A DNA stretch of 63,242 nucleotides, filler included, from Sphacelaria rigidula (lineage: Eukaryota), in assembly GCA_964200075.2 (NCBI GenBank). It is 11 parts of 11 records of this genome, joined end to end, with 100 filler letters (N's around TTAATTAATTAA, not from the genome) between each part and the next. Parts side by side here need not be neighbours in the genome. Positions count along the whole stretch, not along the records: positions 17,278 to 22,936 come from CAXNAA020025484.1; 10 more parts are not named here. The stretch is one strand, 5' to 3'. Of this stretch, positions 7,540 to 49,486 are shown piece by piece. The notes under the pieces are model-generated. The model made no database searches, had not been told where the DNA came from, and worked only from the letters and a program-made list of their open reading frames with translations. How positions within the stretch are numbered: the stretch's first letter is position 1; every line of letters begins with the position of its first letter. Position numbers and translations under genes: made by a program.

Positions 7540-7598
7540 CTGTACGACCAGCAGGGGTGCGGGGGTCGGGGAGGGGGGAAGGGGGGGAAGGGGGGGGG

Positions 7599-7875
7599 GT
7601 ACTCATGATCTTGCATGCCATAGTCATATGACCATTGGTCTCGCATCCCTACAAAGCCGGGACAGAGCACACCGGGTTTTCGCCGGACCAGGCTCGCACG
7701 CAATCACCAAGCGCGAAGCGCTGTGATGTGTTCGGCGAGTCGCATGAAGGGCGAGCTGCACCCTGCTAAGATTGTTCAGCTCGAAGCCTACTGATTATTT
7801 TGCACTTGGATTACAGCTTCCAATGAGTTGCTTCATCTTCTGGTATCGCCACTTTCAGAGACAGCCGCGGCTTAC
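7599..7875 (-). mobile_element. Poly(C)-terminated element, subfamily A; other copies ~13960-14222(-), 28568-28609(-), ~34560-34600(+), 40311-40449(+), ~46240-46511(+)
   Basis: Shared sequence ...GTCCCGGCTTTGTAGGGATGCGAGRYCAATGGTCATATGACTATGGCATGCAAGATCATGAGTAC ending in a C-rich tract. Confidence 0.85.
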
Positions 7876-8505
7876 ACACTTCCTTAGGAGTGTCTCACCA
7901 TTTAAACACCACGTATTACGATTATCTCTTTTGCGCGCAGTCCACAATATGATCTAGCTTGACCACAATCATGGCAGGGGGGGGGATGGCAATGTTTGGA
8001 TCTGGGTAATTGAGGAGGAACAGCTATCTCTACTATTCACAACAGAGGTGATGCCATCAGCTGACCAGACCGAAGTCGATCCATTCGTAGTTTCTACTTA
8101 GTGCTGGAAGATGACTGACGGAACGAACGACAAAACACCTGGGTACAGGTAACTAACATATATCAAAATCGCAAAACTCGATGCAGAAGTCAGAAGTGCA
8201 AAAAACATCGTATGGACAAAGTACAGAAGCGCATTGCAGACGGTCGATGTACCAATAGTGCGAGTGGAAAATCGTTCTCGATATCTAGGTTACTTACTCC
8301 CTCTGATCGAAGTCATAAGGTCGATTTGGAAATCTACTACATAAGGTCGATTTGTACGTTAGGCCTACAGTGTATTGCGGTCGGCGTACGGACAAGAAAT
8401 GGTGCAAGATATGTTCGGAAATCACCCGATATGAATAAAAAAATCGACCTCAGAGGTTACTGGAATCTGGGGATGCAGGCTCAACATCCCCGGGTTGTGG
8501 AATAA

Positions 8506-9863: not shown

Positions 9864-10189
9864 CTTTCCGGGAGGGGGGAGCGCGCGCGGGGGGGGGAGC
9901 GTACTCATTTACTCATTTGATGCTTGCTATAGTCGTTCGACCATTAACCACGCATCCCTTTCGAGACGGAGCACCGTTCCTACTCCTNNNNNNNNNNCTC
10001 CTAATAGAGCCACCTCCAACATTCCGGCGCTTATTACATTTCTTCCATATATTACACAAAAACCTTTTACATATCATATCCCCGTCCTGTCTTGCCTGGG
10101 GGGGAAGTCGAATGTTCAAGACTGGCGCTGGAGAAAACGAAGACGGGGGATGGTAATACGAAGTAGTCAAGGATGACATTTTTTCTTCT

Positions 10190-10488: not shown

Positions 10489-10659
10489 CATTTCGAAAAA
10501 AACTAGAGAGGCTGCTGTGCGTGCCCGCACGTGCTGTCCCAAAACATCGATAGGTATCACTCTAAAACAGTTGACATGAAGAGATGCGACCTTCACAACC
10601 AGCACCGACTTCTCTTCCCTCCCCCCCCCACCACACCCAGAGTGCCATACATAACGCAC

Positions 10660-11151: not shown

Positions 11152-11568
11152 CTAGAGACGGAGCAGAGACGGCAACGAAAAAATGTATTCCATTGCACGG
11201 CGGGGCTTAGGGTCTGCTGAGCTGTAGAAATAGTAGGGATCGAGTCAGAGTGATTTTTCCGCAACGAGAGGGAACTGTGAGCTGATTAAGAGAAGGAATT
11301 ACCAAATACTTCTGACTTCTCATTTATTTTAAAATATGCAAAAACTACAGATTTGTTAAATCTTTCAAAAAATGAATATCTCAAGTTAAACGATAAAATA
11401 TTAACGTTTAAGCTAAATNNNNNNNNNNNNNNNNNNNNNNNNNNNNNNNNNNNNNNNNNNNNTTAATTAATTAANNNNNNNNNNNNNNNNNNNNNNNNNN
11501 NNNNNNNNNNNNNNNNNNGGGTGGGTGGGGGGGGGGGGGGGGGGGGTGCGCCCTGGAGCGGGGGGGGG

Positions 11569-11611
<43 letters not shown>

Positions 11612-13159
11612 CGTAATCATTTGTTGCTTGAATTAGTCGTTTGACCATTCATCGCGCATTCCTTTCGACACGGAGCACCCCGAAGGGGAGGTCCGATAGA
11701 GTATGTCAAGAAAGGGGCCTACGGCCCGTCATTGACTCTCATTGAATAAACTTTGTTTACTACTCATGCCTTCATATTTCCCACGACGGAAACCAATTAC
11801 ACGTCAATAAGACGGACCCATTTGCCTTTGTCGGGACCAGTAGAGAACCCGTATTTTTGGCGACCTATTTTTTGGTGTCACTTGTACCGATCATACCATG
11901 GAAGGGCACTGCGGCAGGCCTTCAAAAGTATATATCTTAGAACACTCTTTATGATACCCCCCCCCCCCCCGAAAAAAAACAGCCTAAAACTGTCACGAAG
12001 AAAATGGTCATGCAGCACCTGATGTCTGGTTTCAGGCTGCACGAAGCGCCTCATATGGGCGACATGGGCGGAAACGATTTCAAGCGTTCGAATTCCCAGC
12101 TACTCGTTGTGCCCGGCTTCTTTCATTTTGATTCGTGTGTATATTATGCCTCCTCAAGCCAGCCACCTTTTGTGGGGGGGCTACCGTAGAAAGCGTATTT
12201 AACCCTGTGGGAACCCTCCCCTTCCGTCCCCGGGCCAGACGCCTCATTGTTCCAAGCACTGGCATTCAAGTTCTGGCAAAGAAGAAAAGAGGGGAACAGA
12301 GAAGACCGACGGCAACCATTTTCATGGCGGAAAGCCGCAGAAGAATCCACCAGCGTACGTCATGCGTGCACCAAAAATGTCACCCAGCTGCAGTCAGATT
12401 CATTTTGACCAGTGAGGGACGCAACGGGTCAAGTTTGTTCAAGTTTGTGCTCACAGCCCAAGTCAGCACTTGGGTGCCAGAAGTCTATACAAACTAAAAT
12501 CAGCACCGTGTGTCTATTTTCTATATACGGAGTCCAAAGCGGCGCTAGTGCACATTATTGTACGGGCCTGAAAAACACGGGTCGGGCTAATAGTTTTGCG
12601 TGAAACCTGCAAGCACTCAACCATATGCCGTTGAAAAAACAGCACCTCGAAACCCAGACTTTTCCATTGTCAGTAGAAAAAGGGTTGAAACAAGCGCTTA
12701 AACTTCCACCACACCTCGACCAACTGGGGGAAAGAGGTTTCCTAGTCTCTTTTCTCGACGTCTCTCTTGTTTTATTTCATGTTATTTTGCCTTGTTTTCG
12801 GAATCTCAGAAAAAGCAATGAGTGTTCTGTGTATGTAAGGAACAGAAATGCCGATACTGAAATTGCGAGCCCATGTCTGTAACCACGGGTTCGATATATC
12901 GGGCTCTTGTGCGGAAATAGAATAGTAGTAGTAGTAGTAGCAGCAGCAGCAGTAACAACAACAATGAATAATAAAGATTAATTCAAATGAAAATAATAAC
13001 GATATATGATAATAATGATGATAATGATAATATAGTAGCAATATGTACTACTACTGCTAGTACGACTGATAATACTTCTACTAATACTACTAATACTACT
13101 ACTATTATAATAACAACAACAACATGGGAACGAGCAAATGAGCGAACAGGTAAACTCGC

Positions 13160-13427: not shown

Positions 13428-15463
13428 CGGGAGGCGAAGAAAAACTTCAGCAGGCACAATCCGAACGCAAAATAGGCACGCACTTTCAAAATTGAAGAAA
13501 GCCTGTTGTCGTTCATTCTCTGGATCAGAGAAGTCAAAGTAGAACACACACACACACCACCACCATGTACACAAGTATGAGTCGTTTGTTATAGAGTATA
13601 TGTGTACGCGTGCATGTGCATGTGCACTGTCCAAAGCACAAAAATGGCAAAGAAGGAGATAAAACAAAATGAATGCCCAGATAGATCGAAGCCAGGAAAA
13701 TATAGTGGTTCAGACTCCGCAAGAATAATATGCACAACAAATGTAAAACGAACGAACAGAGTAATAGCAGAACCCCGATAACGACAGTCATGGTTATATC
13801 ATGTCATGAGACCGCGAGTAAACAAAACACTCCATGATAGTGGGTGACGGAGTGCTCATCAAATGCTCCATGATATGTTGCAACGTAGGTACTGAAGGCG
13901 AGAGAGTGAATACCTGAATACTACCTGAATACTGCTGACTAATCCCGAGAATATGAGGTGGACCCATGATCTTGCATGCTATACTCATATGAACATTGAC
14001 CTGGCATCTCTACAAAGCCGGGTTTTCGCCGGACCAGGCTCGCAATCGATCACCAAGCGCGAAGCGTCGTGATGTGTTCGGCGAGTCGCATGAAGGGTGA
14101 GTTGCGTCCTGCTAAGATTGTTCGCCCTAAAGAGTACTGATTATCTTGCATATGGACAACAGCCTACAACGAGCTGCTTCATTTCCTGGTATTGCCACTT
14201 CCAGAGACAGAGACGGATACCCACTGCCTCATGGGTGTCTCACCGTGGCGGGGAGGAGGAAAGGGTACTCATTCGTTGCTCGCCTCAGGCACTTGACCAT
14301 TTACCACGCATCCCTTTCGGGACGGAACATCACTCCTACTCCTAATCGAGCACGTCCAACAGTTGGGCGCCCATTACGTGTTTTTCTCCTCGTACATTAC
14401 ACAAGAACTCTTTACTCATTTTCTCGTCTTCATGCCCTGCCGTCTGTGGCCACCATCTATCCTGTATCTCGCTACTATCTAGTGCACCAAACAGTTTTCC
14501 GAGGGGCGGGAGAGGGGATTTAAGCATGATGAGGGGGAAAAACTAGACGAAAACAACATCGTGAGAGGGATACAAGGCTACCAATCCTGGTCAAAATTGA
14601 AACTAGCGGCCAAATATCAACCGCAGGACACTACTCGAACTCAAACTCCCCCAGAACTTCGCCAATTTGGCCCTTTCGCATGCTGTCGCATTCCGTGCGT
14701 TTTCTTTGCAATTTTCTCGAAAGAACCCCCCCCCCCCCCCCCCGAGTTTTCCTTTACAAAATTATCCGTTGATATTCCCCACTGTAGTCAGTATCCATTT
14801 CCACAGAGGCCGCCCTGCACATCAAGGCGGTCGGTCAACGGTATAAGCAGACGGCCAAGTTGATCTGCTTACGCCAAGTTAGTCTGCCTTGGAGCCGTTG
14901 TCAACACAGATGCGAAAATATCCAAACATCGGATGGCTCATGAGCTACCTAGAAAAACTTATCGAAGAGGATTCTCAGCTCCGTCGTCCAAAAACACAAA
15001 ACGCGTGACAGCGGGGTCCGAGAAGCCAAAGCGATAACTTTGCGATACTCCGCGTGCCCTGCGCCCAGCTCCGTACGCAGCAAAATACGAAGAAAAAGGG
15101 GGCAAATGAAAAAGCTAGCTCTTGACCCGAATAAGTACATCAGCCGCAATCTCTTCCCACGACCTTTTGTTTTCTACGATTGGGTATGCGTGTAGAGCCT
15201 GTGCAAGACCTCTTCCACCGAAGCAATGTGGCAGAAGCCGGCCACTTCTGGTTTTGGTTTCTCCCTGTCGTTTTCTTCTACTTCTTTGTTTTCCATTATA
15301 TACTGTATTTCCCACCTTTTTTGTCCTTCTTTACTTTTCTTCAACGAGTGCTTCGGTTTTGTTTCGTCTCGGGTACGTATATCCTGTGGAGAATGACCAC
15401 GGCTGGATCCTTGCGGGATCCGATAAATTGCGACAATGAAAAAATAATTTTAAAAAAGGTTAC

Positions 15464-15541: not shown

Positions 15542-18500
15542 CTGAAAAACAATCGCAATGAAAGAAACACAGCAGTAGACAACAGCATCATCATAACCAT
15601 CATCATCATCATCATTATCATCATCATCATCATCATCAAAAAGTCGTCATGCACACAGGCTCTGTATGCGAATGATTGGTGGGATGGCCAGGCAACCAGC
15701 CGACGGTGAAAAAATCACATGAAATTTACGTCGCATTTTCACATTTTGGCGTGGAAAAAAAATCAAATGGATGCGGTTGTACGGGGTGACAAAGTTGCTT
15801 CTCCATCATTGCACAACAATAGCATAGTATATCTTGATCTATATGGAGCAAAAACATTCGTTCAGTGCAGACTGAAATCCATATTATTGATCTGTAGAAC
15901 CCTAGATTATGACCTGTACAGTCGCCTGTGTTCTCACTAGTTGAGTATAATTGAAAAAAAAAACTTGCACTCCGGACAGGCTGGGCTAGCCTAAAAACGG
16001 ATTTAAGCTCTAAAAGCAATATCTCAACGACACAGACGAATTGGGCCGTGGTCCGCATATCGTATTAATCGTCTGATCAAGGGGAAGGTGCCCATCTGCT
16101 CAAAAATCTGAGCCAATATTTCCTCGTCGAGTAAACCCCATGTATAGTAATTCGTATACCTAGCGGAGATAGCGTCCACATTAAAACCTATATGAAACCC
16201 CGAACGATCGATCAAGCGGATGATGACGATTTTTGGTGTGTACCTTCCCTGAAACACGGGGAGACGATAGATACCCTCACTTTCATCTCATTCGTTATCT
16301 ATCTCGAGAAATGGCGCACATAAGGTTCGATACTAAAATCAGTATATTACGAGCAGAGGCACTAGATGACCTAAATCTGGATATCGCGTCTCAGTTTTTG
16401 AGAGTTGTGCTATGAAATTTGGTATGGAGAACCGCTGGTGCATAACGAAAAGAAACACAGCTTTTCCGGGGGGGGGATTCGTGTTTTTTTCATTTTTTTT
16501 CGTGTTTTTAGGGGGGTTTTGAGGAGAAATGAACATTGCTCTTGGGTCTTAACTCAATTTTTTTGCTCAATTTTGAGAATTGTGATTTGAAACTTGGCAT
16601 GGAGAACGACAGAGGTATGCTGAGTAAAAAAAAAAATGGGCCTTCATTTTTTTTCTTCATGAGAGGTTCGGGCGTTTCCGTAAATAAATCATCGTTACCA
16701 TACTAAAATGCCCTCAATCAGTTATAAAATAAAATAAAAACCCAACCTCACCCATTTTCTTGGTTCATCACAACCTAGCAAGGTCCCACACAAAGTTTCA
16801 ACCCACAAACACCAAACGTGGGCCGATAAACGGCCTGCAAAATACTGTTCCGAATTTTCACCGCCTCGGTTTTTCAAATGTAAAATCGCAATCTTTTTCT
16901 TGGAGTTGGAAAGTGAAATTTGGTATGGACAATCAACAGTGCGTGAAAAAAAGCTGTCTGTGATGTCCCAATGTTTTTTTTTCCCGTGAATTAAGGGTAA
17001 AAATCAGTTTTGAGGTTTTAGTAAAATGCCCCTAACTAAAAAAAAAAAAAAAAATCGTTGGGACCTCACAGACAGCTTTTCTTCATGCCCTGTTGTCCAT
17101 ACCAAATTTCATTTTCCAACTCCAAGAAAAAAATTGCGAATTCGCCTGCAAAGTACAAATCCACTTGTAGGCTGGCCNNNNNNNNNNNNNNNNNNNNNNN
17201 NNNNNNNNNNNNNNNNNNNNNTTAATTAATTAANNNNNNNNNNNNNNNNNNNNNNNNNNNNNNNNNNNNNNNNNNNNGATTCATTCATCAGTAGTCAACT
17301 TATTATACTAAAATCAAGTAATATCCTGACGAATCATCATTTTTCCTAAGCGTGAAATGTTTGCTGGGATGAGTGGTGGCACGTGCAAACACACTGTAGT
17401 ATGCCCGATGACGAGAAAACTACGAAAACATGTTATTTCAGATGTTAACTACTGTAGTCATGTAAGCGTGAAAAAGGGTGTTGAATGAATTGCGACTTCG
17501 TTAGCCATCACGTGTGCGCATCCCCAGGTAGAATATATAGAAGCAAGAACGAAACCATGGGAGGCTGCGTTCACCATAGCTTCAATGCACCAAGGAAAAC
17601 AGACAACAGCAACTGGAACCGAAAATAGCGAACACCATCTGCGAGATATTGACGTTGCCTGGCTCACCACACCACACCGAACACGACATCAGACTCTTCT
17701 ACTATCACACAATACCACGTCCCGTAATTTTGCACGGTCTCTAAACTGAGCCGAACGCCGTGGAAACAGTTTCCTAAAGAGCGGACGAAGGCTATCGCGC
17801 TGAAACACGTTTTCGTGGGATCGCGGGTAGAGCCCTGATTGATAGTGGATTTCATCACTCGCTTCAACTCCACCAATTTGTCATTCTGTGTGAGCCTTTC
17901 CTTGCGTGCAACACTGGCGTGTACTTACAGCTACACGTCGATATTCTACTCAGGGATATTCAAGGCTTCAGTGGCAAGCTGATACAGAAACCGTATCGGG
18001 CCTCGTGGAGGGGACATTTGGGAACTAAAACGATTCATTAATTACTTGACCGCTTCTCACTCTCAATCGTACCCTCTTCTCTCCATCACACGAGAACACT
18101 GTTTCAACCAGGTGCAAACCAGATTCTCCACCACGTCGCCAGCTGTTTCCCCTTGCACGTTGGCAGTTTTCTTCACGCATTTGTTTTCCTTTTCACTCGA
18201 TACTTCATTACTCTTTGCTGAGATCCGTGGTCAGATACGAGGGCAAAACACGCGCACGCACTATTACCGAACAAGCGCTTCCGAATCCGCTCCTTCTGAT
18301 TCAAGAACACCCGTCTGTAAAACGTGTTTCCGGGTGATTCATTCAACGTTGCTCGAGCAGTTTCTATGGGACGTTTCCGAGAGAGAAAATGTCTCCGAAC
18401 GGGGATGGCCCCCAATACATGTATTTCGCCCCCATTTCGTTGAAGGACACGCCCGTTATCGGAGAGATCAAAATTGTCGACCCAGAGGATCACAAGAACG

Positions 18501-19505
18501 GCCCCATCAAGCATGGTGCGGCCGGCTGTGCAGACGGTACACACACAAACATACGGCGGCTCACGTCGAGAACAGACAGCACAGTGTACAGTGCAGCAAC
18601 GTTACATTGCAGCCGGTGCCGCTGTGTAACTTCACATCCAGTACCCACAGGTGTGGCACATAGTTGTTCAAGCATGCGGCACAACGGCAGCAGCATACTG
18701 TGGGGTATGTGCAGTGCTGCCGTGCAGATGGGGCAGTGTAGAACATAGCTACAGACAACCGACAGTCAGCGGTCGCTTTTTCGCACACCAAGTTGTCAAT
18801 TTTAAGTATCACGGTGGGCGGGCGTACGCGCCAATTTGTTTTCAGAGGTTTACAAAACGGTTCCGAAAACTGCCGTTCTTGGACGACTGTCACTGGGCGA
18901 TCTTTTGATTTGCCGTCGCATTACAGAAAGCGGCCTCAACAACAAGGACTTTGAAGAAAACATATATGATTACTCGGGGAAATCGAGCCATTTTTACATG
19001 GAGCCACACATAGTACAATTGCCGCGGGTTCTCAGGGTGAGTTCATCGTGGGGCACGGATTTTTTTTCAAGTAATGCACTGTTTGGTATGTGTTCTTCAC
19101 GGCACGGTATCACGTGGTCCGCATAATCTGTTTCACGATACGGCACGGCAGGGCGCGACACGGCAACAGAGATCGGCGATGCGGTTCCAATTGTGAACAA
19201 GATAATAGTGTTAGATTTGCATATTTGTGCGTGAACCACGCAAACTTTCAGTATACTGTGGGACACATTCCGGGCAAAGAAGGCTTGGCTCGGTTCGTAT
19301 CATCTCGCTTGAACTTTCACTCCAAGACTCACTTCAGCCATGGGGAAATACTTACACCACCTTTACTCCGGAGTATTTATTTGTCGTAAAATCTGTTATG
19401 CCGAGTTGTGCCGTTTGTGTCATTACGTTGGTGTTCGCGTGTTTCTACAGCTGTTTCTGGAGGTCCGTCTTCACGGTTACATTTGTTCTCCCCCTGTTGT
19501 TCACG

Positions 19506-19586
19506 GTGCTCCGTCTCGAAAGGGATGCGTGGTCAATGGTCAAATGACTAAGGCAAGCAACAAATGAGTACGCCCCCCCCCCCCCC
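19506..19586 (+). mobile_element. Poly(C)-terminated element, subfamily B, with 16-bp TSD; other copies ~9900-10035(-), 11611-11680(-), 14265-14372(-), 22820-22903(+), 23259-23330(+), 28630-28690(-), 38830-38950(+), 42506-42578(+), 49380-49466(+)
   Basis: Core GTGCTCCGTCTCGAAAGGGATGCGTGGTCAATGGTCAAATGACTAAGGCAAGCAACAAATGAGTACG followed by Cn. CCCCCTGTTGTTCACG is duplicated at 19490-19505 and 19582-19597. Confidence 0.88.
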
Positions 19587-20465
19587 TGTTGTTCACGCCT
19601 GCCCCTTCCTTTTCAAGGTAACAGCTTCCGTGTGCGTGTTCCCCAAAGCAGCTCAACTCACCATAGTGTGTTGTCGATTCCTGCTCGTGAATTGATTCAA
19701 TGTTCGCTTCGTTCTCGATATTTTACGATACGTCTCCTTCTTTAGCACACCCGTTTCGTCTTAATCTAAATGAGTCTTGAGAACGGCCAAATACTGTTGG
19801 ATTCTTTTTTTTCTTGTAACGGATCACATCTACCACGGCGTATTACTGCACTGCCAACTCTGCGCATTCATCTTCGAGACACGTTGCTTTGCCCTGAGCG
19901 TCACTCCAGCTTTACCCCAGAAATGGTACGCGCCGATTTCCTCCATTTTCACGATGTGTCACAACTTACGGGAACTCCACCTCTGAACAAATACGGCACG
20001 CTATGGTATTGTCATCCGAAGCGACGAAGACACGAGCAGGTGGTTCGTGCCTTGCATATGCACACAAAAAACTGCCCCCCCAGAGCAGAGTGAGTGCCGA
20101 TAACACCAAGCCCTGTGCTTCTAAACTGCATCACGCGGGAATTGGACGCACGGACCACAGCTATTCGAGTCCCTGGAGATTCACACTTCCGCACGACCAC
20201 CGCATGGCCCGTCGATAATCCCCGTCATGTGTCACGCCAATGGCTTGTGCCACAGAATGTCGGTTGGCGAAAGTATGTGAAGGAGTCCTTGGTGCTATAT
20301 CGAGGTGACGCATCAGAGTTTTTCCAAGCCCAATGATCAGCGAGCTCCTTTGCGTTCATCCCGCCCTGTCAATGCGTCTCAGGTATCAGCGCTTATACGC
20401 TTCAGGCAAGGGGGGGATTAACGGAGTAAGACAATTTTCCGAGAGGGGTGCATTTCCACGACTCT

Positions 20466-22148
20466 CACCACCAGCTGGACCAGCCTAAAAACGGATTTAT
20501 GCTCTCAAAGCACAATCTCATCGACATGGACGACTAGGGCCACAATCCGCATATCGTACTAATCGTCTGATCAAAGGGAATGTGCCCATCTGCTGAAAAA
20601 TCTGGGCCAATTTTTTCTCGTTGATTAAACCCCATGTCTAGTGATTCCTGAACCGTACGGAGATAGCGTCCACACAAAAATCTATATGAAACCCCGATCG
20701 ATGCATTCAGCGGATGACGACGATATTTGATGTGGATCTTCCCCTCAGCACGGAGAGAAGATAAATACCCGCGCCTTCACCCAATTCGTCATCTATCTCG
20801 ACATGTGGAGCACATCATATTTCATACTAGAATCAACATATTACGAGCAGATGCACTAGATGCCCTAAATCTGGATATCGCGTCTCAGATTTCGAGAGTT
20901 ATGCTAGAAAATTTGGCACGGAGAACCGCTGGTGGATTTTGATTTTTGATTTTTTTATATTTTATCTTTATTTCGTTGTTTTTTTCATTTTTTTCCGTGG
21001 TGTTATGGGAGTTTCGAGGAGGAATGAACATTGCTCTCAGGCCTTAGCTCAATGTCTTGGCTCAATTTTTAGAATTGGGATTGGAAACGTAGCGTGGAGA
21101 ACGCCCGAACCTTTCCCGCGAGAACAGAATGGGCCTTCATTTGTTTTGGGATAGGTTGGGGCGTTCTGGTAAAAATATGGCCGTTGCAATACTAGAGCGC
21201 CCTAAGCCAGTGGAAAAAAATAATACTCGTATGAAACAAAATGACCCACCGAGTTTTGTTGAGTATGCCCCAGCGAGGGCGCACACAAAATTTCAACACA
21301 CAAAAACCAAACGTGGGCTGGTGAGTGGCCTGCGAAATACTGTTCTGAATTTCTATCGATCCGGTTTTTGAAAGGCGAATGCGCCGGCCAATATTTAGAT
21401 CCGGAGCGTATAGATTTGTATTGACAATGCATAGGGCATAAAACAATATTCAAAAAGCACCAGATTTTTTTTTTTTCCCGTGAGTTAAGGGCAATACTCA
21501 GTTTTCAGGTATCAGTAAAATGCCCTTAGGCTACTCCTCGTCTATAACGAAATAAATCTTGTTGAAAAGCGCATTTTTTACCCTTTCCCGGCGTTTCCCC
21601 CCAGAAAAGAGGGCTAGGCGGATGTTGACACCTTGGAATGGCTTGCTCTACTCGCTGAGGCCGTTTCAGAGCATCTTTGCGTTTCCCGTAGGTCACGGTT
21701 CCGTCCTTGGCCAAAAGTGCATATCCAATAACAATCAAGTTACCAAAAAAGTGTCAGTTTTCCTGCTGTTTTTTATAGCTTGATCGTTTGTTATAAACAT
21801 GCAATCTTGGCCAAGGACGAAACTGTGACCTACGGGAAACGCAAAGGTGCTCTGGAAACGTCTCGGCGAGTAAAGGAAATCATTCCAAGGTGTCAACATC
21901 TGCCCAGTCCTCTTTTCGGGGGAAAAACGACGGGGATGGGCCAAAAATGCAGTTTCCAACAAGATTCATTTTTTGATACATGAGAAGTAACCTTAACACA
22001 CGAAAAAAACAACTTATGGTGCTTCTCTGGTATTTGTTTTATGGCTTATGCATTATCGATATCAAATTTTACGCTCCAACTCTAAATTTGGCCGGCGCAT
22101 TCGCCTGCAAACTTCCAATCCGCCTCTAGGCTGGCCAAACTCGTAGTT
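20466..22148. mobile_element. Non-autonomous CACTA/EnSpm-like DNA transposon (~1.7 kb) with a large internal palindrome; relatives at 15968-17177, 39623-40210 and 50581-51191
   Basis: Termini from several copies give the consensus CACTACGAGCTGGGCCAGCCTA...CGGATT, inverted at both ends. 20480-21370 aligns with 15985-16875. Confidence 0.7.
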
Positions 22149-23969
22149 TCAAGGTGTGTCTTGTTTCAGCAGGTGGTGACAGGCGCGACTGATGTAGGCA
22201 CAACTGGCCATCATGCCCGCCGGCTAGTTCCGTACGGCGTGTGTATTTGTGTTCACAATCGCCCTGCCACTGGCCACCGCCGCCACCCTAGTGTAGAGCA
22301 CCCTTTGCGTGCCCACACAAGATAAGGTGGTGTCTCCCAACAGCGTATGGCAGTACGCTGAAAACGTGATGGATCGGCGTGTACTGTCCTCCTCCACATC
22401 ACTATCCGCCTGGTGCAGGCTTTCGGCATCATCGTTCATTCTCTGAGGAATATCTCTCACATGAATTGAAGGTTCATCCAGCCTGTGTCACCTCCGATTC
22501 GAGGTGCACAAAGGAGAATGATCGCATGCCCATGATGTGTCACGCAAATCTCGGAGGGGGGGGGGGGGGGGGGGTTTTCACGGAAATGGGGGGGGGGGAA
22601 AACCGAGCTGCGGCAAGGAGGGAAAGGCAGCGGCCGAGACCCNNNNNNNNNNGTTCGGCCGCGGCGCGGGGGCGGCGGGGGGCGGGTCTTCCCGGAACGC
22701 GGGGGGGAGAGAAACCATGCTAGCGACCTCGACACTGTGGATTTCAATGCATCTTCGGACGTCGACACCCCTTTCTTTGCATCAGCGTTGCCGCCACGCT
22801 GCGAAAACACGTGCAATTATCCGTCTCGAAAGTGATGTGTAGTTAATGGTCAAACGACTAAGGCAAGGAACAAATGAGTATGCCCCCCCCCCCCCCCCCC
22901 CCCATGAAACCACAAATACGCCCCTCGCACTGTTCCNNNNNNNNNNNNNNNNNNNNNNNNNNNNNNNNNNNNNNNNNNNNTTAATTAATTAANNNNNNNN
23001 NNNNNNNNNNNNNNNNNNNNNNNNNNNNNNNNNNNNGGGTGATTTCACGAAATTCGGGGGCTCACAGGTGTATCAGACGACATAATTACTCGCGATGCGT
23101 TTGGGTTTGAGTGAAACCGGTGTCACGTGGTATAAATGAGTGTCTCTTATTGGTAACAAGCGCATTGGAACAAACGTTGATGCTTCCAACACCGGTGGGA
23201 TTTCGTGGGAAAAATGGCCCAACATACCCCCCCATGCCCCCCCCGCTGACGCGCGTAGCTCCGTCTCGAAAGAGATACGTAGTCAATGGTCAAATGGCGA
23301 AGGTGAGCAACAAGTGTATGACCCCCCCTTCCTCCCCCTCCCCTGTCGTAGCATCACTCACGTTCAAAACCTCCCCTTTGGGTGGGCTGCTTGTGTGGTC
23401 GTTCGATATCCTGTTCGCTGCCAAACATGTCAAAAGCTCGCTGACCCCTCGTCTTGAAGTTTCTTGCTGGGACCATGGGGCATCTCTCGTCTACAGCAAT
23501 CCCCCCGTTCTCTCTCGGCCCGTACACCGCTCGCTATATATACCAGGAAGAATGCTGGGAAACTGTTGAAAGCGTGACGAAACGATGGACGATCCTACCC
23601 AGCTCCCCCTGGAAACAAAAATGGGATACGTGAGTTTACTCTGAGTCTGCCAGTAGGGTATTCGCGACCCGGTATCCTGAGAACTTGAGCAATTGTAGTT
23701 ACTTTCATCTTGTATAGAATATGGATGCATATATGTGAAACCAATACGAGTGCGTATCGCAAATAGTGATCATCTGCCCCGTGCACAGTTGCGAACAGTT
23801 AACTTCCAAGTTTCGTCCTATCGGCCGCCCGCTTACCTAAAGGATACCTGTTGCTTCTACTTCAAGATCGTCGATGACACGATCAGAAGCTTGGATCACT
23901 TTCGAAGGAGCTTTACTGGGGCCTGACCCGTATCCAGCCCGATTTCGAGCGTAAAGATTATCTTCTCCG

Positions 23970-26329: not shown

Positions 26330-28897
26330 TTACATATCGTCAGGATGACCGTGCGTTAAGCATTGCGTGCACTACCGTGCTGCGATGAAATAGCACACAT
26401 CGGCAACACGCTCATTTCTGGCCAATACGTAAAATTTGGCTGCGTTATCGACTGCCCAGGTTGTGGTTGTGTTTGTATCTCATGTAAAAGTAGTGGTTCT
26501 ATCTCGTGACGCCGCACACTCCGAGAGAAATGGTTTGTTGCGGCGGTGAGACAAAAGACTGTCAACGTAACGACCTCACCTGTGCCGTGTTGCGATGTCT
26601 CCGTGCCGAGAGCGGATATCCAGAAAGTGGATAACGTGGTACGATTACGCAGCGAATACGCTGCGATTGCGGTGATTCCTTGTCTATTTTGGATCTTTAC
26701 AGTCGAAGTCGGGCTGCGGCTAGATCGGGATAAGGGCTCAGAACGCTTAATCCAAGGTGATCCACCTGTTACTCGACAGTTTTCGGGACCCGCTTTACTT
26801 TCGCCACGGTCGATTTCCAAGACTTTTTGGTGATTGATACTTGACTGAGACGACTTTCGGAAACACGTTCTTGTCGTCCATAGCCGATCGAAGCCCGCCC
26901 ACCTTGTTGGATGCTAAATGCACGGTCTTTGGGAGGGGAGGGGGTCGGAATAGTGAATTTCAGTGGGGAGAAAACCGCCCACACAGAAGAAGCCGTTATC
27001 ATGCATATGCCGAGCGCATTTGCTACAGTATTCGTGCGGAAGCCACAACCAGCGACTATTGCCACCGCAGTACAGCAGAAAAGGTAGTATAGCGGTGATA
27101 GCGCTAGCAGTACGTATGGGCATGCCTTCACGAAGATGTCAGCACACGTGAGTGCTTCTACGGTGGGGGTGCACTTTTTAGTCCAAACGTTTTCTAAGGC
27201 TGCACACTAAGCCCCACATGCGTGTCGCTGAGAGGCTCCTACAGTGCGGAGCCCCAGGAGAAAAAAAGTGTGCGCACCTGCCGTAGAGTTACTTTACTCA
27301 AAAGGTTGATGCATGAACAGATAAAGCCTTCACCACCCTTTCCCAACAGCCATGACGCGATATGCTGGCGCGGCGCGCATATTGGCTCAAGCGTTTTGTT
27401 TTGCGCTGCAACACTTCTTTCTGCTGAACGCCTCGTCTGCCCATTTGGCGCCCCATACGCGCGCTTTCGAAATCCATCCTCCGAACACTCACGGGGCTGC
27501 CATTTTTTTCCCTCACACTTTGAACCCCTCCCCTTCGTCGGGGTGAGTCCGTGGTCTCAAGGGACCAACCCATCTCTCCCCCGGCACGTGCCTTTCATTT
27601 CGTTTCGCGGATTGGGTCAGCACTTCCGCACCGCGTCCACTCACGCCACACAAACCCAGTCGACTACTTTGTTTACTCACGTTCTCACGGTTTCCATGGT
27701 GGAAATAATATATTACGAAGAGAAAACCCAACGCATCAGGAATCGAACCCCCGTTCTCTCCACCCTAACGGCGACAGTCGGACCATTACACCACCGGGGC
27801 GCAGCGCCATGTGAACACACACCTCTCGGCACCGAATCCATAGGCACTTTTTTGTTGTTTTTTCGTCGCACTTCTAACCCCTCCCCTTCCTCAGGCTGAG
27901 TTCGTGGTCTCGAGGGATCAACCCATCTCTCCCCGCTACAGGCTGTGCATTTTTGGTCTCGTGGATTGGATGATGACCAACACTCCCGCACCACCGCGTC
28001 AACTCCTGCCAAATAGACTCAGTCAACTGCTTGATGTCTACTCACATCTTCACACTTTCAAGAGTAAAAAAAAAATCAGATACTTCAAAGAAAAACAACA
28101 ACACAACATTTGACGGGAATGAAGCCCATGTTCTTTCCACCCTAACGGTGTCAATCGGGTCATTTTAATTTGTACCACCGGGACTCGGCGGCTAGGTATG
28201 CGAAGGCTTAAGGCGGCACCTGAGGCAAACTTGTGACGCTGGGGGAAAGTAAAAGAGGATATTTCAGACTGTCCGATGAATCACGTACTCAGTGTACGAA
28301 ATAATTTGTACATGCATACTGTACACACAAACGAAAAACGTTGCCACGAGATAAAAAAACAAAACAGAGTTGCGGGACCTGCTCATCTGGGAAGCCTGTT
28401 TGTTGTGCGTTTGTTTGCTTCATTTTCGCGTCACTACACCCTAGTGCTAGTTCTTGGCTTCATTACGGTGCTCTTCGTTTCGATCCCTGCTGAGATCCAG
28501 TTGACGAAGAAATTTAGAACTCTTCAACACAAGCACTTTTTGCCACGATATTATGATGGGGGGGGGTGTACTCATGATCATGCTTGCCATAGTCATAGGA
28601 CCATTGACGGGGGGGGGGGGGGGGGGGAATTATTTTTCGCTTGCCTTTGGTGGTCCACCCTTGGGCACCCCCCCCTTTCGAGACACCCCACCCTNNNNNN
28701 NNNNNNNNNNNNNNNNNNNNNNNNNNNNNNNNNNNNNNTTAATTAATTAANNNNNNNNNNNNNNNNNNNNNNNNNNNNNNNNNNNNNNNNNNNNGTCGTT
28801 GCATGTGACACCCACGCCATCAACCGCCCACCTCAAAGGTCTTGTGACTTTCAAGCAACGCTGGCGGCAGTACGGCAGGCAAACCCGATCATAGCTA

Positions 28898-34056: not shown

Positions 34057-34866
34057 TAATCGCGTAAATTCCAGGTTCATCGAGTTCCGTTAAACGGCAA
34101 ACCGGGCTGGAATCTGTGGCCGTAGGCGGGAGAGGTAGGCGGGGAAGAAGGTCAGCGTTCCCGTTGGTTTTGCCTGGACGGTGCTCAATGGTATACTGGT
34201 ATGCTGTTAGAATCTCCATCCATCGTTGTACACGCATCCATCGTTGTACACGAGGTTTGTGTTCGCAAACCTTGGCGAGCTGTTCAAGTGCTCCGTGATC
34301 CGTATAGATTTTGAAGGGCACGTGAAACAGATATTAACAACAAAGTGTGCGAATTGAGGTTTAACTTCCAGATGAGGTTCAAGCCTAAAACAGTGCTTTC
34401 CCCACACATTCAGCGATGGTGCCCGATGACGTGTTCGTCGGCCTAATGCCCCNNNNNNNNNNNNNNNNNNNNNNNNNNNNNNNNNNNNNNNNNNNNTTAA
34501 TTAATTAANNNNNNNNNNNNNNNNNNNNNNNNNNNNNNNNNNNNNNNNNNNNCTCCCGGCCCGGTCCCATGCCTATCGCATGCATATGCATGGGACCATC
34601 CCCCCCCCCCCCCCCCCCCCCGCGCGCGGTTTTGGCTGGATAGGATCAGCGCTCTAGCACCGCGTGAACTCTCGCCAAACAAAATCAGTCAAACTTTCAT
34701 TGCCACCCTCGCCGTCACGCATTCATCAGAGGAAATCAACTACTTCCAACAGAAACTCCACACGGTTCGGTCGGTTCGGGAATTCGACCTGCGTTCCTTC
34801 CACCCTAATGGTGTGTTAGTTGGACCATTTTAATCTAAACTGCCGGGGTCCAGCCCGTGGCAGTGC

Positions 34867-37679: not shown

Positions 37680-39074
37680 CTGAAAAACAGCAGAGAGCCA
37701 AACCAGAGAGGGGGCTGAAATTCAGGCTAGGGAAATCAGCTCATCTGGAGATTGAGCGGGAAATACACAGGCTAGCGAAACGCTACCCCCTGCAGGACGA
37801 GGTGTGCTTGGTTCAATTCATTGTTCTGCGATGTAATTGATGTCGGTTTAGTCTGGGCGCGGCGTGATTTGTGCCGGTTCGGCGGCACCATCGCGTTTCG
37901 CACCAAAGCGTTTTGAGCACGAGATGACGACCTTCTGCCTCGGAGGTATGCTCGGAGGTATGATCGGTGACGCTTATCCACAACGATCGGGAAGGTTCAT
38001 GACAAGAGTGTAAGTGCCGTATGAAAGTGTCGTACGAAGTATCGCTCATCCCGATCACCGCATCTACAATTTCTGACGCCTGACTTCTCGAAAAAAGATC
38101 ACAAAAGTTGACCGCGGGTCAAGAAAATTTCTGACGCAAATTTTGCCCTGCCCCACGTGGTTGGGGTGCATCGCTGAAGGAAAAAAAAAAAGCCGAGGAT
38201 TGATTCGTACGGTACGAATCAATTACACTAGAAGCTATCACTAATTTTCAGACGAATCACCATTTGTGCGACCCTCGCAAGAGTGTGCAACATATGGCAT
38301 GTACACTTGATCACCACGTATTATGTGCCACGCCATACATACGGTAGGTAATACGTATTCTTTTTCAGACGCCGTGCGTATACGGTGCCGGGTCGTGCAT
38401 GTGATGAAGTTGCCCGATCCCGTTAACAGCGAAGGGGTCGTTTTTGTCCCGACGCTCGGATTAAAAATAGAAAGAGGAAATGAGTGCACACAACATACCA
38501 TGCCATCGGGTGAGACAACCATCCTTTTTCAGGATAACAAATCACAACTGAATGATGTCATCAAAACCTGACCTCACGCACTCCGGTCTTATACATCACG
38601 AGGATCGGATAAGCCGAAACGAAAAAATAATATACTGTTCCCGCGTGATCTGGCAGAAAAACTGCTGAGGGAATGGAATAGAATCATCAGCCAGCTCGAC
38701 AAAAAAAACCCTCAGTAACTGCTACGGTATGGGCGGAGGATGAGAACAGGCTTCTGCTCGGATCGACGCGCCGAAGATATTTTGGCAGCCACCATACGTA
38801 TCGAGCTGCTTCCGCCCCCACCCCCCGAATGAGCGCCAGAATGTTGGAGGTGTCTCTATTAGGAGTAGGAACGGTGCTCCGTCTCGAAAGGGATGCGTGG
38901 TCAATGGTCACACGACTAAGGCAAGCAACACATGAGAACGCCCCACCCCCCATCCCTCCGTCGGAGGGCGAAAGTTGAGAGATAAATATGCCGGTGTACG
39001 TTACTTTGCCACAACATCTTGAGCATCGACGGCTTCGAAGACGACGATTGTCACCCGGGGGACGCTCGAACACA

Positions 39075-39437: not shown

Positions 39438-40516
39438 ATACATGATGCACAGCCAGCGCCTGCCTGGTGCTATAGTGATGTCCATGTCAAGAAGAGAGAA
39501 AAATAGGATTCGTTGCTACATGCAGTATGGCACCTTCTTGCCACAACTTGGAGGTTCACACACGGCTAAGGGGTTCTTGAACTCGTGGCCACAGACATAC
39601 GCTCGCCTCTACAGTACCGTTATACTACGAGCTGGGCCAGCCTAGAGGCGGATTTGACGTTTGCAGGCCCATGCTCTTTTATACATTTAGAGTTGGACCC
39701 TGAAATTTGGTATGGACAATGATGGGGGTATGAAAAAAAAATACTTCGGTACCAATTTTTTTTTTTTTTCATGAGTTGGAGACATTTTCCTGATAATCGA
39801 AAACTGATTATTGCCCTCAACTCGTGAAAAAACAAAACTTTTGGTACCGAAGTAATTTTTTTTCATGCCCTATCCATTGTCCATACAAAATTTCAGGTTC
39901 CAACTCTAGATGTATAAAAGAGCATGGGCCTATCAAAAACCGGGTCGGTAGAAATTCGGAACAGTATTTCGCGGGCCACTCACCGGCCCATGTTTGGTTT
40001 TCGTGTATTGAAATTTTGTGTGGGCGCTCTCTAAGGCATAACTAACAAAAAAAGTGGGTCAGGTTAATTTTTTTCACTGCTTTAGGGCGTTCTACTATGG
40101 TAAAGACCATATTTCACGAGAACGCCCTAACCTCTATGAAAAAAAAAGTGGAAGGCCCATTTTTGTTCTTCATTCGACACTCTTTTTTGGTTCTCCACAC
40201 CAAAATTCGTNNNNNNNNNNNNNNNNNNNNNNNNNNNNNNNNNNNNNNNNNNNNTTAATTAATTAANNNNNNNNNNNNNNNNNNNNNNNNNNNNNNNNNN
40301 NNNNNNNNNNCGCCACACCACGGCGCTTCACGCTTGGTGATTGATTGCGAGTCTGGTCCGGCGAAGACCCGGCGCGCTCCGTCCCGGCTTTGTAGGGATG
40401 CGAGGTCAATGGTCTTATTACTATGGCGTGCATGATCATGATGACTACACCCCCCCTCTCCCTCCCGGCTCGCCCTCTCCCTCGAAACTTGAATAAAACC
40501 GGAACCGAAAAAGTAG

Positions 40517-41821: not shown

Positions 41822-44577
41822 ATTTCATATAGTCCTTATCTAGCGTGTGCAATAATGCACACCCTGGGCAACATGTGGTCAAGGGTTGCAAGAGGAAAAA
41901 ACTTGTATTCCGTGAAGTACAGACCTTTTGGAACTATCGCACGCCCTGGACAACGGACGGCATCTATTCCAAAAGCAATAGAATCTGCTGCAGTAGATGC
42001 CAATATTGTCGTCCCTAATGGCCATCGATCGGCACGTTTCTATTTCTTTCGTCGTCGACAATGTTTCCCACACTTTTGTCCGGGCCGCAGTCTGTTGTGA
42101 CCCTACACCGAAATCTATTGCGGCCGACCGAAGGCATCAATCGATGGCTTTCCAAATCTAATGATGACGACAATGGCTGTCGATACACCGCATGCCAATT
42201 CTAGAGTGATTACGACGATGGCTGTTGACAGATTGTATACCAAATATATGGATGACGGTAATTGCTATCGATATATGTATATACATCCCAGCCCCGGGTC
42301 CCGTGCGGCTTGTATGTATATGTATATGTATGTGTGTTTTTCATTATTTTTTCCACAGGTTGGTCTTGTGCGCCTGTCAACATACGGCAATATTTCATAC
42401 ACATCTCGTATGTGTGCGCGTGCCTTCTGCGCAAAGAATATTCTTCACCCGAGAGTGATGCCGCGATAGCCCCCCCCTTCCCCCCCCTCCCCCACCCCAG
42501 AGAACCGTGCTCCGTCTCGAAAGGGATGCGTGGTCAACGGTTAAACGACCAAGGCAAGCAACAAATGAGTACGCCCCCTTGGAGACTGCGAGCCTGGTTT
42601 GAGGAGGCAAAATCTCCGTGTATCAAAATGAAGAAAGTCGAGCGCACTGAGCAGCTGGAAATTCCCTCCGTTGGGATTGTTGTCGCCAATGTCGAACATA
42701 TGAGACGCTTCGTGCGGTCTGAATGCCAGCTGTCATGCGATGTGCGGCGATTTTGTTCGTGATAGTTTGGGGGAGGAGGGGGGGGTGGGGGTGATGCTAT
42801 CGCGGTATCACTCCCGAAGCCTTTGCGCATAAACCAGCCATTTACAGCGTTTGTCTATTCGTTTGTTTTACCCAGTCTGCTTTTTGTGTCTGTTTCACCC
42901 TTCTGTTTTCTTCACTTTCCTTCAGCAAGTGTCCTCTGTTTTTTTTTCGTATCTCGGGTACGTCTATCATCTATCCTGTGACGAATCTATCGATACAAAT
43001 CAACATTTTCTGTGTTTCTTCTGTACCTGCTTCCTTCACTGTTGTCCAGCCAGTGTTCGTGTGACAACGGCTGGGTCTGGTTAATGTATGCAACAATCAA
43101 ATCAAATCATTCAATGCCGTGCGCCCCCCCCCCCCCCCCCCCCCCCTCCTTCTCCCCTGTTTTTTTCTCTTCGCTGGGTGTTTGGCTGTTTTTTGTTTNN
43201 NNNNNNNNTTTTGCCACCAGTTTTTGTTTGAAAAAGGGTGGGGTTGTTTTATTTATTCAAAAAACAAAACAAAATACTCAATCCCCCGCCCCCCCCCCCC
43301 CCCCCCCCCAATTTGCTTTTTCACGCGTTTTTCCTCTGCGATTGGTGCTTTTTCTCATATGTTTTGATTCTCCGTGCAGCTCGATCTTCTGCGCCTATCG
43401 ACGGGAACGCAATCTCGTGTAGTCACCGCATGCACCCTGCTCAAGCGCATGCTGTTCCGTTATCAGGTGAGCGTTCACGAAACGACGGGATGTCAGGAAG
43501 CGTTTTACTTTCATTTTTTGGTGTTCGTGACTCTGGTTTAGTTTCTCCACTTTGATGGACTCGAAATCTCCAAATTCGTTCAAGTGTACGTGGACCAACC
43601 CTAATGGGAGCCGTCCAAAATCCCTGATGAAAACTGCCTATTGGGGCGCTTCTCCGTCGTTTTATGTCCGATCAGAGGGTCGGGAGGATGTCGATGCCTT
43701 GGAATGACTTGGTCTACTCAAACACTATATACAAAGGTATAGGAAAAAACGTTTTATGGGAAATTTAATACCCTTCCGGACCGTATCGGAGTGTTGGGAA
43801 CAAGGCTCAATACACTGCCGAATCACACCGAAATGCTCAGTACTGTACAAATCCCGGTGTGGTCTAGTACACCAACCGAAAGTCACCCACCTCTGGGTAT
43901 ACCCTGCAGAGCATGACCCTGGTATTTGCTACTACTCAAGGACAGCGCTCCGGAGTGCAATAGTTGGTACCTGGAGTATCGACCCGCCCGATAAGTTCTG
44001 AGAATTTTGTGGAGTGTACCTAAAATGCCGTCTATTCTGGACGCCAGTCTACACCTTTCGGTGTATGTGGGCGCATCAGTCGGGGTCACGCACGAGGAAG
44101 GCCATTACGGGAGTTTTTTCCTCCGTCTCCTGCTCAAGTACTCCACCTTCCTTATGCGGCGCTTGCCTTTATTTTTTATCACGAGAGGGGTTCAGCAGTC
44201 CTTTTCCCTCGTCGACTGTGAAATCGATTATTTGTGAAATGCACGTAGAAAACTTATAGTACCTGGCATTGTTGACACCCTCCTAGGCACACGTGTTCTT
44301 AGCTTTGTCATATTCTGTTCTAGGCACCTTTGAAAGCGGTCATGATATATCGGGATGCGATGTGTTGTGTGTGTTGTCATGCCATCTATTCTGGACGCCG
44401 GTCTACACCTTTCGGTACATGTGGGCGCATCAGCCGGGGTCACACAGGAGGAAGGTCAACACAGGAGTTTTTTTCGTTTTTTCTTGTGTTAGTACCCCCA
44501 CCTTCCTTCTGCGGTGCGTGCCTTTATTTTTTATCGCGAGAGGGGTTCAGCAGTCCTTTTCCCTCGCAGACCGTTGA

Positions 44578-45612: not shown

Positions 45613-46538
45613 TTAATGTACTATTCCGTTGAGGTGTTTTGGTGGCCTTATCGCGCGCTACAATCTGTTTTTTTTTTGTTTTGTTGATTTTATTATTTAT
45701 TATTTTCACTTTTCACTTTTCGCTTGATTTTTTTCCTCGTCGAAGTAGCGAGCGTTTTTTCCCCATGTCGGGTGGATGTGTCCTGCGCTCACGGCTGGTT
45801 TCGTGGCGGTTTGATCTGATGGAAGAGTGGAAAATCTATCAGTCTGTGTACAGTGAAACAAAAGCTTGTCAAGCCAGAGAAATGTAAAGATTGCACGGTT
45901 AGGACAAATAATGATTCGTCAGGAAATCACTTGGTTCTAGTATAATAAGGTGACTCGTGATGAATGAANNNNNNNNNNNNNNNNNNNNNNNNNNNNNNNN
46001 NNNNNNNNNNNNTTAATTAATTAANNNNNNNNNNNNNNNNNNNNNNNNNNNNNNNNNNNNNNNNNNNNCGCTGTGATTGGGTAGGTCGCTCGAAGACTTG
46101 TTTTTTTATTATTCCACTAACACAGGGTCAATCCTGTGTTAGTGGGGGTCCGGTCCCAAAAGAGTTAACTCCACGCAAAGGGGATGACCAACCTACGTGG
46201 TGTTTGAACGGTAAGACACTCATGAGGCAGTGCGTAACCCGTGACTGTCTCTGCAAGTAACGATACCAGAAAATGCAGCAACTTATTCGAGGCTGTCATC
46301 CATATGCAAGGTAATCAGCAGGGTTCGGGTGGAACAATCTCAGCAGGATGCAGCTCGCCCTTCATTACGACTCACCGGACACATCACGGCGCTTCGCGCT
46401 TCGTGACTGCGGGCCTGATCCGGCGAAAATCCGGCGTGGTCGGTCCCAGCTTTGTAGGGATGAGAGTTCAACGGTCATGAAACTACAGCATGTAAGAGAT
46501 CATGAGTGAACTCCTCCCCGCGCCAAGCCTGCCCTCAC

Positions 46539-48725: not shown

Positions 48726-49486
48726 CTGCTTTACGGCCAGTGCGTGTGCGCGTGCGCACAAAAACGGAGGTGGGTAAAGGGAGATAAGGAGCAAACAGCT
48801 GCGCGCAGCACAGGTCACACGACATGTCATGCGACACCCCCACAAGGGGTCGGTCCACCAACCCATGCCATGCCGCACACGCGTAGCCAACGAGAGCCAT
48901 AACAGCGGTCACGACACGAGTTTCACGTGAATTCTACACCACTCATCATGCCACGCACAACCCCCCGAATCACCACCTACTCCGGAGGCTTCAAACGTTC
49001 ACAATCGGAATTATCACTTTGGCGCGCGCCCAAGATCGCCGGTTGGGCGTCAGGTGAACCGGACTTTTGAGGGAGGAATTGCTCCGGACAAGGTGCTAAT
49101 TGATCCTTTTGGCTGACAATATACATTATTTTCGATGAAAATCTTGGGAGAACCGGCGTGCAATGTACGGCTGCACCCAAGCAGTAGATCATCTCCAGCG
49201 TCAAATGACTCTACAGGCTGGGCCACTACCACAACAGACAACTCAGGGATAATCAATTGCGATGGTTGCTGAAAGCGAGGAACACCATGAATTGCCTTCC
49301 GACCTCACACTTTTGGTGGATTCGCGGGTCCAAACACTGCTTGACAATTTCCAGAATAGAGGGACCGATCCTCCTCTCGGTCTCGAAAGGGATGCGTGGT
49401 CAGTGGTCAAGTGATTGAGGCAAGCAACAAATGAGTACGCTCCCCCTCTCCTCCTACCCCCCCCCCAATCCACCTGTGGATCTTAC

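Follow-up and report, generated by a model that had tools for sequence, protein, structure and literature searches.

A repeat family scattered through a 63,242-nucleotide (nt) stretch of DNA from Sphacelaria rigidula (assembly GCA_964200075.2), hereafter the window, is very probably the 3' end of a brown-alga autonomous retrotransposon without long terminal repeats (LTRs), that is, a long interspersed nuclear element (LINE), together with a non-autonomous partner, both presumably moving through target-primed reverse transcription (TPRT). The window is made up of 11 pieces of ~5,658 nt each with artificial N linkers between them, and it includes three genuine 10-N gaps. The copies share a terminus, ...ATGAGTAC(G), and form two subfamilies: A, with nine copies of 63-230 nt, and B, with five copies of 42 to ~377 nt. 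The two are alike in their last ~50 nt only (83-85% identity across 34-52 nt; blastn). A preliminary description of this DNA had proposed a system of a LINE and a short interspersed nuclear element (SINE) with a poly(C) tail, and the two components reported below, a LINE encoding a 1333-residue protein and a non-coding partner, lend support to this.

The autonomous element was found on public contigs. A degenerate search pattern drawn from the shared 3' domain of the window copies, GGTCAATGGTCANNNGACTANGGCANGCA, matches four contigs, two of them metagenomic and two assigned to bacterial metagenome-assembled genomes (MAGs), and has no match in viral contigs. In three of these four (L001, L002 and L004, the whole contig of the last being L014) a long open reverse transcriptase (RT) frame terminates in the A sequence. 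L014 carries a single open reading frame (ORF) of 1333 aa, running from ATG to TGA without internal stops, in which Pfam places PF03372 (Exo_endo_phos, residues 144-366, 7.7e-11), PF14529 (Exo_endo_phos_2, residues 253-388, 1.3e-7) and PF00078 (RVT_1, residues 714-963, 6.4e-32); a C-terminal CCHC motif follows, with ~70 residues beyond it. An N-terminal apurinic/apyrimidinic (AP)-type endonuclease followed by RT in one ORF is the arrangement that defines the class, and an RT/endonuclease ORF is what the preliminary description had suggested looking for 5' of the copies. The frames of L001, L002 and L014 end in ...VVNGQ(M/T)TKASNK*, then GTACG, then (C)8, (C)10 and (C)13, and only 5 nt separate stop codon and C tail. 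The terminal sequence of the frame is ...RSRNGAPSRKGCVVNGQMTKASNK, and the stop is the TGA in ...AAATGAGTACG. Between L014 and L002 the ratio of nonsynonymous to synonymous substitution rates (dN/dS) is 0.12, with dS = 0.95 over 677 codons; the LINE ORFs are intact and under purifying selection. The A copies of the window all match only the final 230 nt or less of this element (77 residues or less), none of them reaching the RT (blastn, tblastn); subfamily A therefore consists of extremely 5'-truncated LINE copies. One of them, at 19503-19572, is 100% identical to L014.

Other features of the LINE-bearing contigs deserve mention. A direct repeat of ~80 nt, 82.5% identical, lies at L014 5114-5254, ~1 kb upstream of the LINE start codon, and near L014 4735-4790 a stretch in inverted orientation looks similar to the 3' domain of the LINE itself. 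L014 (G001:C43) and L003, L006 and L015-L025 (all G002) sit in MAGs with bacterial labels, one Sulfitobacter sp. and one 'uncultured bacterium'. The same MAGs hold further LINE and B-like copies, with a B-like repeat on at least 11 contigs of G002. These contigs are probably algal host contamination of the bins.

Within the window, an nhmmer profile of the last 64 nt of the family, built from the 14 copies that it recovers, finds 14 solid copies at E <= 2.4e-9 and nothing further up to E = 10. They are spread over seven of the 11 pieces. Three degenerate look-alikes, at 28611-28684 (minus), 34563-34599 (plus) and 43039-43123 (plus), appear by lax blastn only. The preliminary description had given about 16 copies on eight of 11 contigs: the abundance of the family stands, and the count becomes 14 solid plus three degenerate (blastn of the 67-nt unit, nhmmer). 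It had also reported a fixed end almost always joined to a C-run or C-rich tract, which agrees with our data. The terminal motif ATGAGTAC occurs seven times in the window against 1.33 expected, a number reached in none of 100 shuffles, and by our own reading of the alignments a C-rich tail, C5 to C42 and often interrupted by T, follows 12 of the 14 solid copies. The other end, described as varying from 40 to 280 nt, in fact lies 42 to ~377 nt away, in two subfamilies rather than one. All nine A copies terminate at the identical base and differ in their 5' ends, which lie 63-72 nt from the tail in six of the nine. The copies and their associated features are as follows.

19490..19505, plus: 5' copy of the 16-bp target-site duplication (TSD) CCCCCTGTTGTTCACG, exact repeat
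19506..19572, plus: A copy of 67 nt, comprising the end of the LINE ORF, the stop codon and GTACG; ends ATGAGTACG; 100% identical to the L014 3' end
19573..19586, plus: poly(C) run, C14, nine added C and the C5 that opens the 3' TSD copy
19582..19597, plus: 3' copy of the 16-bp TSD CCCCCTGTTGTTCACG, exact repeat
38828..38940, plus: A copy, 113 nt; both flanks C-rich (CCCCACCCCCC repeated)
11612..11681, minus: A copy, ~70 nt; tail is a 42-nt G-run at 11570-11611 (C42 on the element strand)
42499..42573, plus: A copy, ~75 nt, within the sub-terminal C-run of an element bearing terminal inverted repeats (TIRs); tail C5 at 42574-42578
22816..22882, plus: A copy, ~63-67 nt; tail C21 at 22883-22903
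49374..49439, plus: A copy, ~64 nt; C/T-rich tail reaching C10 at 49457-49466
9900..10096, minus: A copy, ~190 nt, spanning the 10-N gap at 9988-9997; tail has C9 (G-run 9889-9897)
14264..14492, minus: A copy, ~230 nt, the longest A, in an intron-like gap of an SNF2 gene; C/T-rich tail at 14247-14263
23255..23321, plus: A copy, ~65 nt, with a diverged end; C/T-rich tail; C-runs upstream at 23227-23244
7600..7976, minus: B copy, ~377 nt, non-coding; C-rich tail at 7560-7599; C9 (7977-7985) abuts the 5' junction
46170..46517, plus: B copy, ~350 nt; C-rich tail weak
13962..14246, minus: B copy, 285 nt, 5'-truncated; begins in the C-rich tail of the A copy 14264-14492; no C tail of its own
28567..28608, minus: B copy, 42 nt, between C19 (28609-28627) and C9 (28558-28566) on the element strand
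40311..40449, plus: B copy, cut off by the piece start; C-rich tail after it
43039..43146, plus: A-like 3' end, diverged (lax blastn, 65% identity), then C23; weak
34563..34621, plus: degenerate B-like end, then C22; at a piece start; weak

The A-like end at 43039-43146 may belong to another LINE subfamily. The tail of the A copy at 11612-11681 is part of a G-dense block at a piece start (11519-11611), with G20, G9 and G42 within 93 nt; the G20 and G9 runs beside that tail may be the tails of insertions whose bodies lie beyond the piece.

The family's insertion sites are rich in C. Around the copy at 19506-19572 there is an exact 16-bp TSD that starts with C5, and the C-run grows from 5 to 14, just as the preliminary description had read it. 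The target of this insertion thus had C5, and nine more C arrived with the element. Of the 12 copies with a definable 5' junction, 10 have a run of at least four C no more than 25 nt upstream of it, against a background of 7.5% (binomial P = 3e-10). Together with the C5 of the TSD, this supports the earlier suggestion that the elements prime on G/C homopolymers. Newer copies also sit in older tails: the B copy at 13962-14246 lies in the tail of the A copy at 14264-14492, and the B copy at 28567-28608 lies behind the C19 of a degenerate A-like copy (28611-28684), to which it is joined head to tail. The latter B copy is the one that the preliminary description had correctly placed between pure G-runs (G9 at 28558-28566 and G19 at 28609-28627). 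The A copy at 42499-42573 is inserted within the C-run of an unrelated element.

That unrelated element raises the question of whether a cut-and-paste DNA transposon ending in G/C runs could be involved, with the fixed end as its terminal inverted repeat. Another family in the window does have inverted termini (...CTACGATAG + C-run ... G-run + CTATCGTAG...), and one A copy lies inside such an element. Inverted pairs are what the preliminary description had named as the mark of a DNA transposon, and neither blastn nor nhmmer finds inverted partners for A or B within the window; the copies are co-oriented in each of the five pieces that hold two or more. In addition, the copies differ at their 5' ends and agree at the 3' end, where the sequence codes for the C terminus of an endonuclease-RT (EN-RT) ORF. 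We therefore give the transposon alternative practically no weight and retain the LINE and its partner.

Homopolymers of 14 nt or more in the window comprise 11 G/C runs against two A/T runs. The preliminary description had suggested that the family generates the poly(G/C) tracts of this genome. This would hold for part of the runs; five of the 11 have no recognisable A or B copy adjoining them by our own reading, and the TIR element carries runs as well. The latter is a family resembling miniature inverted-repeat transposable elements (MITEs), of ~270 nt, present at 11957-12200 (plus), 29935-30175 (plus), 4030-4250 (minus) and 42450-42816 (minus). Of its two inverted termini, one has the form ...ACACTTTCTACGATAG + C-run and the opposite one the form G-run + CTATCGTAGAAAGTGT.... 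It is a second, DNA-type carrier of G/C runs, and its copy at 42450-42816 has the LINE 3' end in its C-run.

How the tail arises can be envisioned in more than one way. In the same LINE, the C-run might be made without an RNA poly(C) template, either because the RT extends the nicked bottom strand with untemplated G's, ahead of template engagement or during it, or because short tails later grow by replication slippage. Tail lengths of 5 to 42 C without obvious relation to copy divergence would fit such an origin, as would the spacing of just 5 nt between stop codon and tail, and template jumping that follows untemplated addition would give rise to head-to-tail arrays with C-runs between the units. 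Even so, a TSD starting with C5 and C-rich sites at 10 of 12 copies are as they should be if the G's of the target base-pair with a C-run of the RNA, and the encoded C-runs of 8-13 in all full-length or long copies would be transcribed. On these grounds we consider an untemplated tail unlikely and favor one that is carried by the element RNA.

The 3' end of the LINE is constrained at the nucleotide level: L014 and L002 differ at ~20% of positions overall and are 67-89% identical in other 75-nt windows, and their last 75 nt are 97% identical, with three differences of which none is synonymous, though the dS of the ORF is 0.95. This conserved stretch is the part common to B and the content of the commonest, ~67-nt A copies. 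We infer that it is an RNA module recognised by the RT and overlapping the coding sequence, which would place the template-recognition signal of this element inside its own ORF. Two small conserved hairpins can be drawn in the 3' end from the alignment of copies, most of which are dead, and a hairpin structure there is a matter of conjecture.

Subfamily B is likely a LINE-dependent non-autonomous partner, although not a proven SINE. By our own reading the LINE frame is interrupted in B by a TAG shortly before the shared 3' domain, and there is no RT nearby. It reaches at least 377 nt in the window and runs on further, for several hundred nt, in related copies of G002. An RNA polymerase III promoter head derived from tRNA, 5S or 7SL RNA, as a SINE would have, was looked for and not found: ARAGORN reports no tRNA-like genes anywhere in the window, a search of B 7560-8000 against Rfam at E <= 10 yields no tRNA, 5S or 7SL match, where matches are at chance level only, and there are no matches in the whole window at Rfam gathering thresholds. 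Judged by sequence, the sharing of the 3' ~50 nt by A and B is a LINE/SINE-like partnership.

Independent sequence data argue that the family is not peculiar to one assembly. We used four public runs (X1, X4, X5 and X6) from three studies; public runs that contain the window DNA include an 'algae metagenome'. None of the runs containing it is listed as RNA, and X6, guessed to be RNA, covers the repeat but does not show expression. In these runs the bin at 19426-19604 has a summed contig depth ~10^4-10^5 times that of neighbouring unique bins, so the family is highly repeated and is not an artefact of a single assembly. Public-run contigs show the same 3' end entering poly-C. Contigs extending 5' of 19503 into LINE sequence number 444, 159, 460 and 73 in X1, X4, X5 and X6, and those with poly-C directly before 19507-19509 number 215, 48, 199 and 20; poly-C thus stands immediately before that position in about a third of the public contigs reaching it. 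Head-to-tail joints with a C-run between units ('goes back 76' and 'goes back 84') occur in 13 and 12 contigs of X1. Separately, joints from a C-run to 22553-22555 were seen in public-run contigs; these are probably an effect of assembly at long homopolymers and were set aside.

These data also bear on a last pair of alternatives, namely that the element belongs to another retroelement class (Penelope-like, or a LINE with a restriction-like endonuclease at a simple repeat) or that the poly-G/C is an artefact of sequencing or assembly. Insertion into microsatellites is known for some Penelope-like and restriction-like-endonuclease elements, and poly-G reads can come from two-colour sequencers. 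The L014 ORF, with its AP-type endonuclease at the N terminus, has no GIY-YIG domain, and by our estimate the ~70 residues after the CCHC motif are too few for a restriction-like endonuclease. The G/C runs are internal to contigs, are flanked by unique sequence and a TSD, and recur in the runs of all three studies and in four unrelated public contigs. We regard both alternatives as very improbable beside an AP-endonuclease LINE with genuine C-runs.

By gene homology the host of the window is a brown alga other than Ectocarpus: the closest matches of an SNF2 exon are Ectocarpus spp. at 74-93% identity, followed by Ascophyllum and Discosporangium. Ectocarpus provides the nearest known system, and the earlier statement that no poly(C)-tailed family had been described does not hold. 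In the curated Ectocarpus transposable element (TE) library, the entry for RTEX-1_Ec32 reads 'single EN-RT ORF; (C)n 3'' and gives the TSD as 'C-rich', and RTEX-2_Ec32 is entered as '(C)n termini/TSD' with a C-rich TSD listed (PMC12477816). RTEX-N1_Ec32 is a non-autonomous element of 607 bp, its '60 bp 3' end 83% RTEX-1/RTEX-2', which 'can be present in tandem'; its authors call it LINE-dependent non-autonomous (PMC12477816). RTE-X is also the most abundant LINE group of Ectocarpus, with 16,418 copies making up 3.41% of the genome (PMC12477816). Like RTEX-1/2 and RTEX-N1/N2, as far as these entries describe them, the window family combines a single EN-RT ORF, a (C)n tail, C-rich TSDs or sites, a tandem habit and high abundance, and like RTEX-N1 its partner shares only a ~60-bp 3' end with the LINE, in an element of ~600 bp there and at least 377 nt here. 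It thus has every feature that these entries annotate for Ectocarpus RTE-X, and we call it RTE-X-like by features, not by phylogeny.

There are differences as well. The window family comes from another species and is another sequence family, with 58% protein identity to Ectocarpus proteins. That figure is for Ectocarpus sp. proteins (P0124, a cluster of 73), unverified as RTEX-1/2, over 99% of a 678-aa RT fragment; these proteins end in the same ...NAPS.RG.VVNG.TAK peptide as the L014 ORF. A second comparison is with RTE-clade and other 'stringent' LINEs, whose 3' untranslated regions are very short and whose tails are simple repeats, such as Ectocarpus RTE-1/2 with (CAA)n: both have a short-repeat 3' end instead of poly(A), a SINE-like partner sharing the terminal tens of nucleotides and heavy 5' truncation. 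Here, unlike in those LINEs, the repeat unit is one base, C, and because it is a single C, G/C homopolymers make up both the tail and the favored targets, a new target coming with every insertion. Outside the Ectocarpus TE library, the literature that we could search, with Repbase, Dfam, bioRxiv and supplements in PDF form beyond it, held nothing relevant on retrotransposons with poly(C) or C-rich tails.

The element can also be set beside L1-type LINEs, which have poly(A) tails and T-rich targets. Common to both are an AP-type endonuclease, TPRT, TSDs of variable length, truncation at the 5' end and pairing of a homopolymer tail with a homopolymer at the nick. Across the RT, the PDB matches include human L1 ORF2p at E = 2e-21 and R2 at 8e-21; neither these matches nor the protein-cluster search resolves the clade. 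Unlike in L1, the tail is C and not A, and there is a single ORF with no separate ORF1. Because it is C, the tail cannot stem from ordinary polyadenylation. A further difference from L1 is the conserved 3' sequence that the LINE has in common with its partner, as would suit a template choice that is strict and not relaxed.

Simple-repeat tails are found in eel UnaL2, CR1 and I-factor, and priming by pairing with the target repeat is the accepted model for 'stringent' LINEs. For the window family, a similar cycle could run as follows. The endonuclease would nick the bottom strand where a short G-run, which reads as a C-run on the element strand, has its 3' edge, and the target G's freed in this way would anneal to the C-run in which the element RNA ends. 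Recognising the conserved terminal ~70 nt, the RT would begin copying within the C-run, possibly with slippage. Reverse transcription would usually end early, giving 5' truncation, and a second nick 0-16 bp downstream would produce a TSD opening with C's. Each insertion would deposit a fresh C-run, and because it does, tails could become targets in turn, giving rise to head-to-tail arrays and to part of the G/C-run excess.

Several points weigh against this account. No full-length LINE was found in the window, and the contigs that carry it are metagenome contigs and contigs of contaminated MAGs. What ties the window copies to the LINE is an identity of 87-100% over their final 56-113 nt, falling to ~80% in the two longest A copies. 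For L014 the only candidate TSD is an unconvincing 7-nt match. Two of the 14 copies are wanting in a clear C tail, the one at 46170-46517 having a weak tail and the one at 13962-14246 none. Only one TSD is unambiguous; elsewhere TSD and tail are inseparable because the sequence is C-rich. The 5' junctions are alignment ends and hence approximate, and all copy counts refer to 62 kb of window and a few foreign contigs. Folding energy of the 3' end gives no signal (z-scores of -1.15 to +0.82). Finally, the nick site, the G:C pairing and the RNA tail are inferred steps.

A bolder extension is possible, and we offer it tentatively, as we doubt it more than we credit it. The element might be a self-seeding generator and the main source, over slippage, of the G/C tracts of at least 14 nt in brown-alga genomes, with the ~67-nt mini-copies arising by template jumping between C-tailed RNAs and not by successive insertions. 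Such tracts are potential G-quadruplex or i-motif DNA. The cycle would give head-to-tail arrays, and it would also give the preferred ~67-nt mini-copy, which would represent the RT-binding module alone, a module overlapping the last 22 codons of the ORF.

For the family as a LINE and its partner, the consequences are more immediate. The identity of a very abundant repeat would be settled and many long G/C runs in an algal genome accounted for, and a practical annotation rule would follow: ...ATGAGTAC(G) followed by a C-run marks the 3' end of an RTE-X-like LINE or of its partner. Homopolymer-C tails are rare among LINEs, and this family offers a natural test of the match between tail, target and priming in TPRT. 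Since elements of this kind are already annotated in Ectocarpus, the value of our analysis lies in confirmation in a second brown alga and in mechanistic detail. Beyond the second host, we add a near-absent 3' untranslated region (the 5-nt spacing of stop and tail), a constraint at the nucleotide level that acts on the final 75 nt of coding sequence, and figures for how often C-runs are targeted and for the ~67-nt mini-copies, all of them absent from the Ectocarpus RTEX descriptions examined.

The remainder of the window provides the setting. Its GC content is 45-60%, and its coding content comprises exons of PPR, SNF2 and DP-transcription-factor genes and an LTR-retrotransposon fragment, long ORFs being scarce. 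Pfam finds no LINE RT or endonuclease in the window ORFs (all 222 frames of at least 90 aa). The sole retroelement match in these ORFs is the LTR-retrotransposon fragment at 32023-34333 (minus), with integrase core, integrase zinc-binding and RT-RNase H domains. Other repeats include two pairs that are 73-80% identical (15980-16857 with 20474-21352, and 16632-17177 with 39635-40164) and an interspersed repeat at 17807-18098 that matches 37243-37522 and 55428-55702, likewise at 73-80%. In the public runs the bins at 17815-18172 and 20321-22289 have very high depth too. A 304-nt match of 89% identity joins 10180-10483 and 27503-27802; one of its copies overlaps the 5' part of a PPR-repeat ORF (10390-11151, minus), and the match may be a duplicated gene segment or a repeat. 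Self-comparison also reveals local tandem or near-tandem duplications with units of 50-230 nt at 56122-56426, 56846-57293, 57585-57830, 59748-60037 and 44025-44566.

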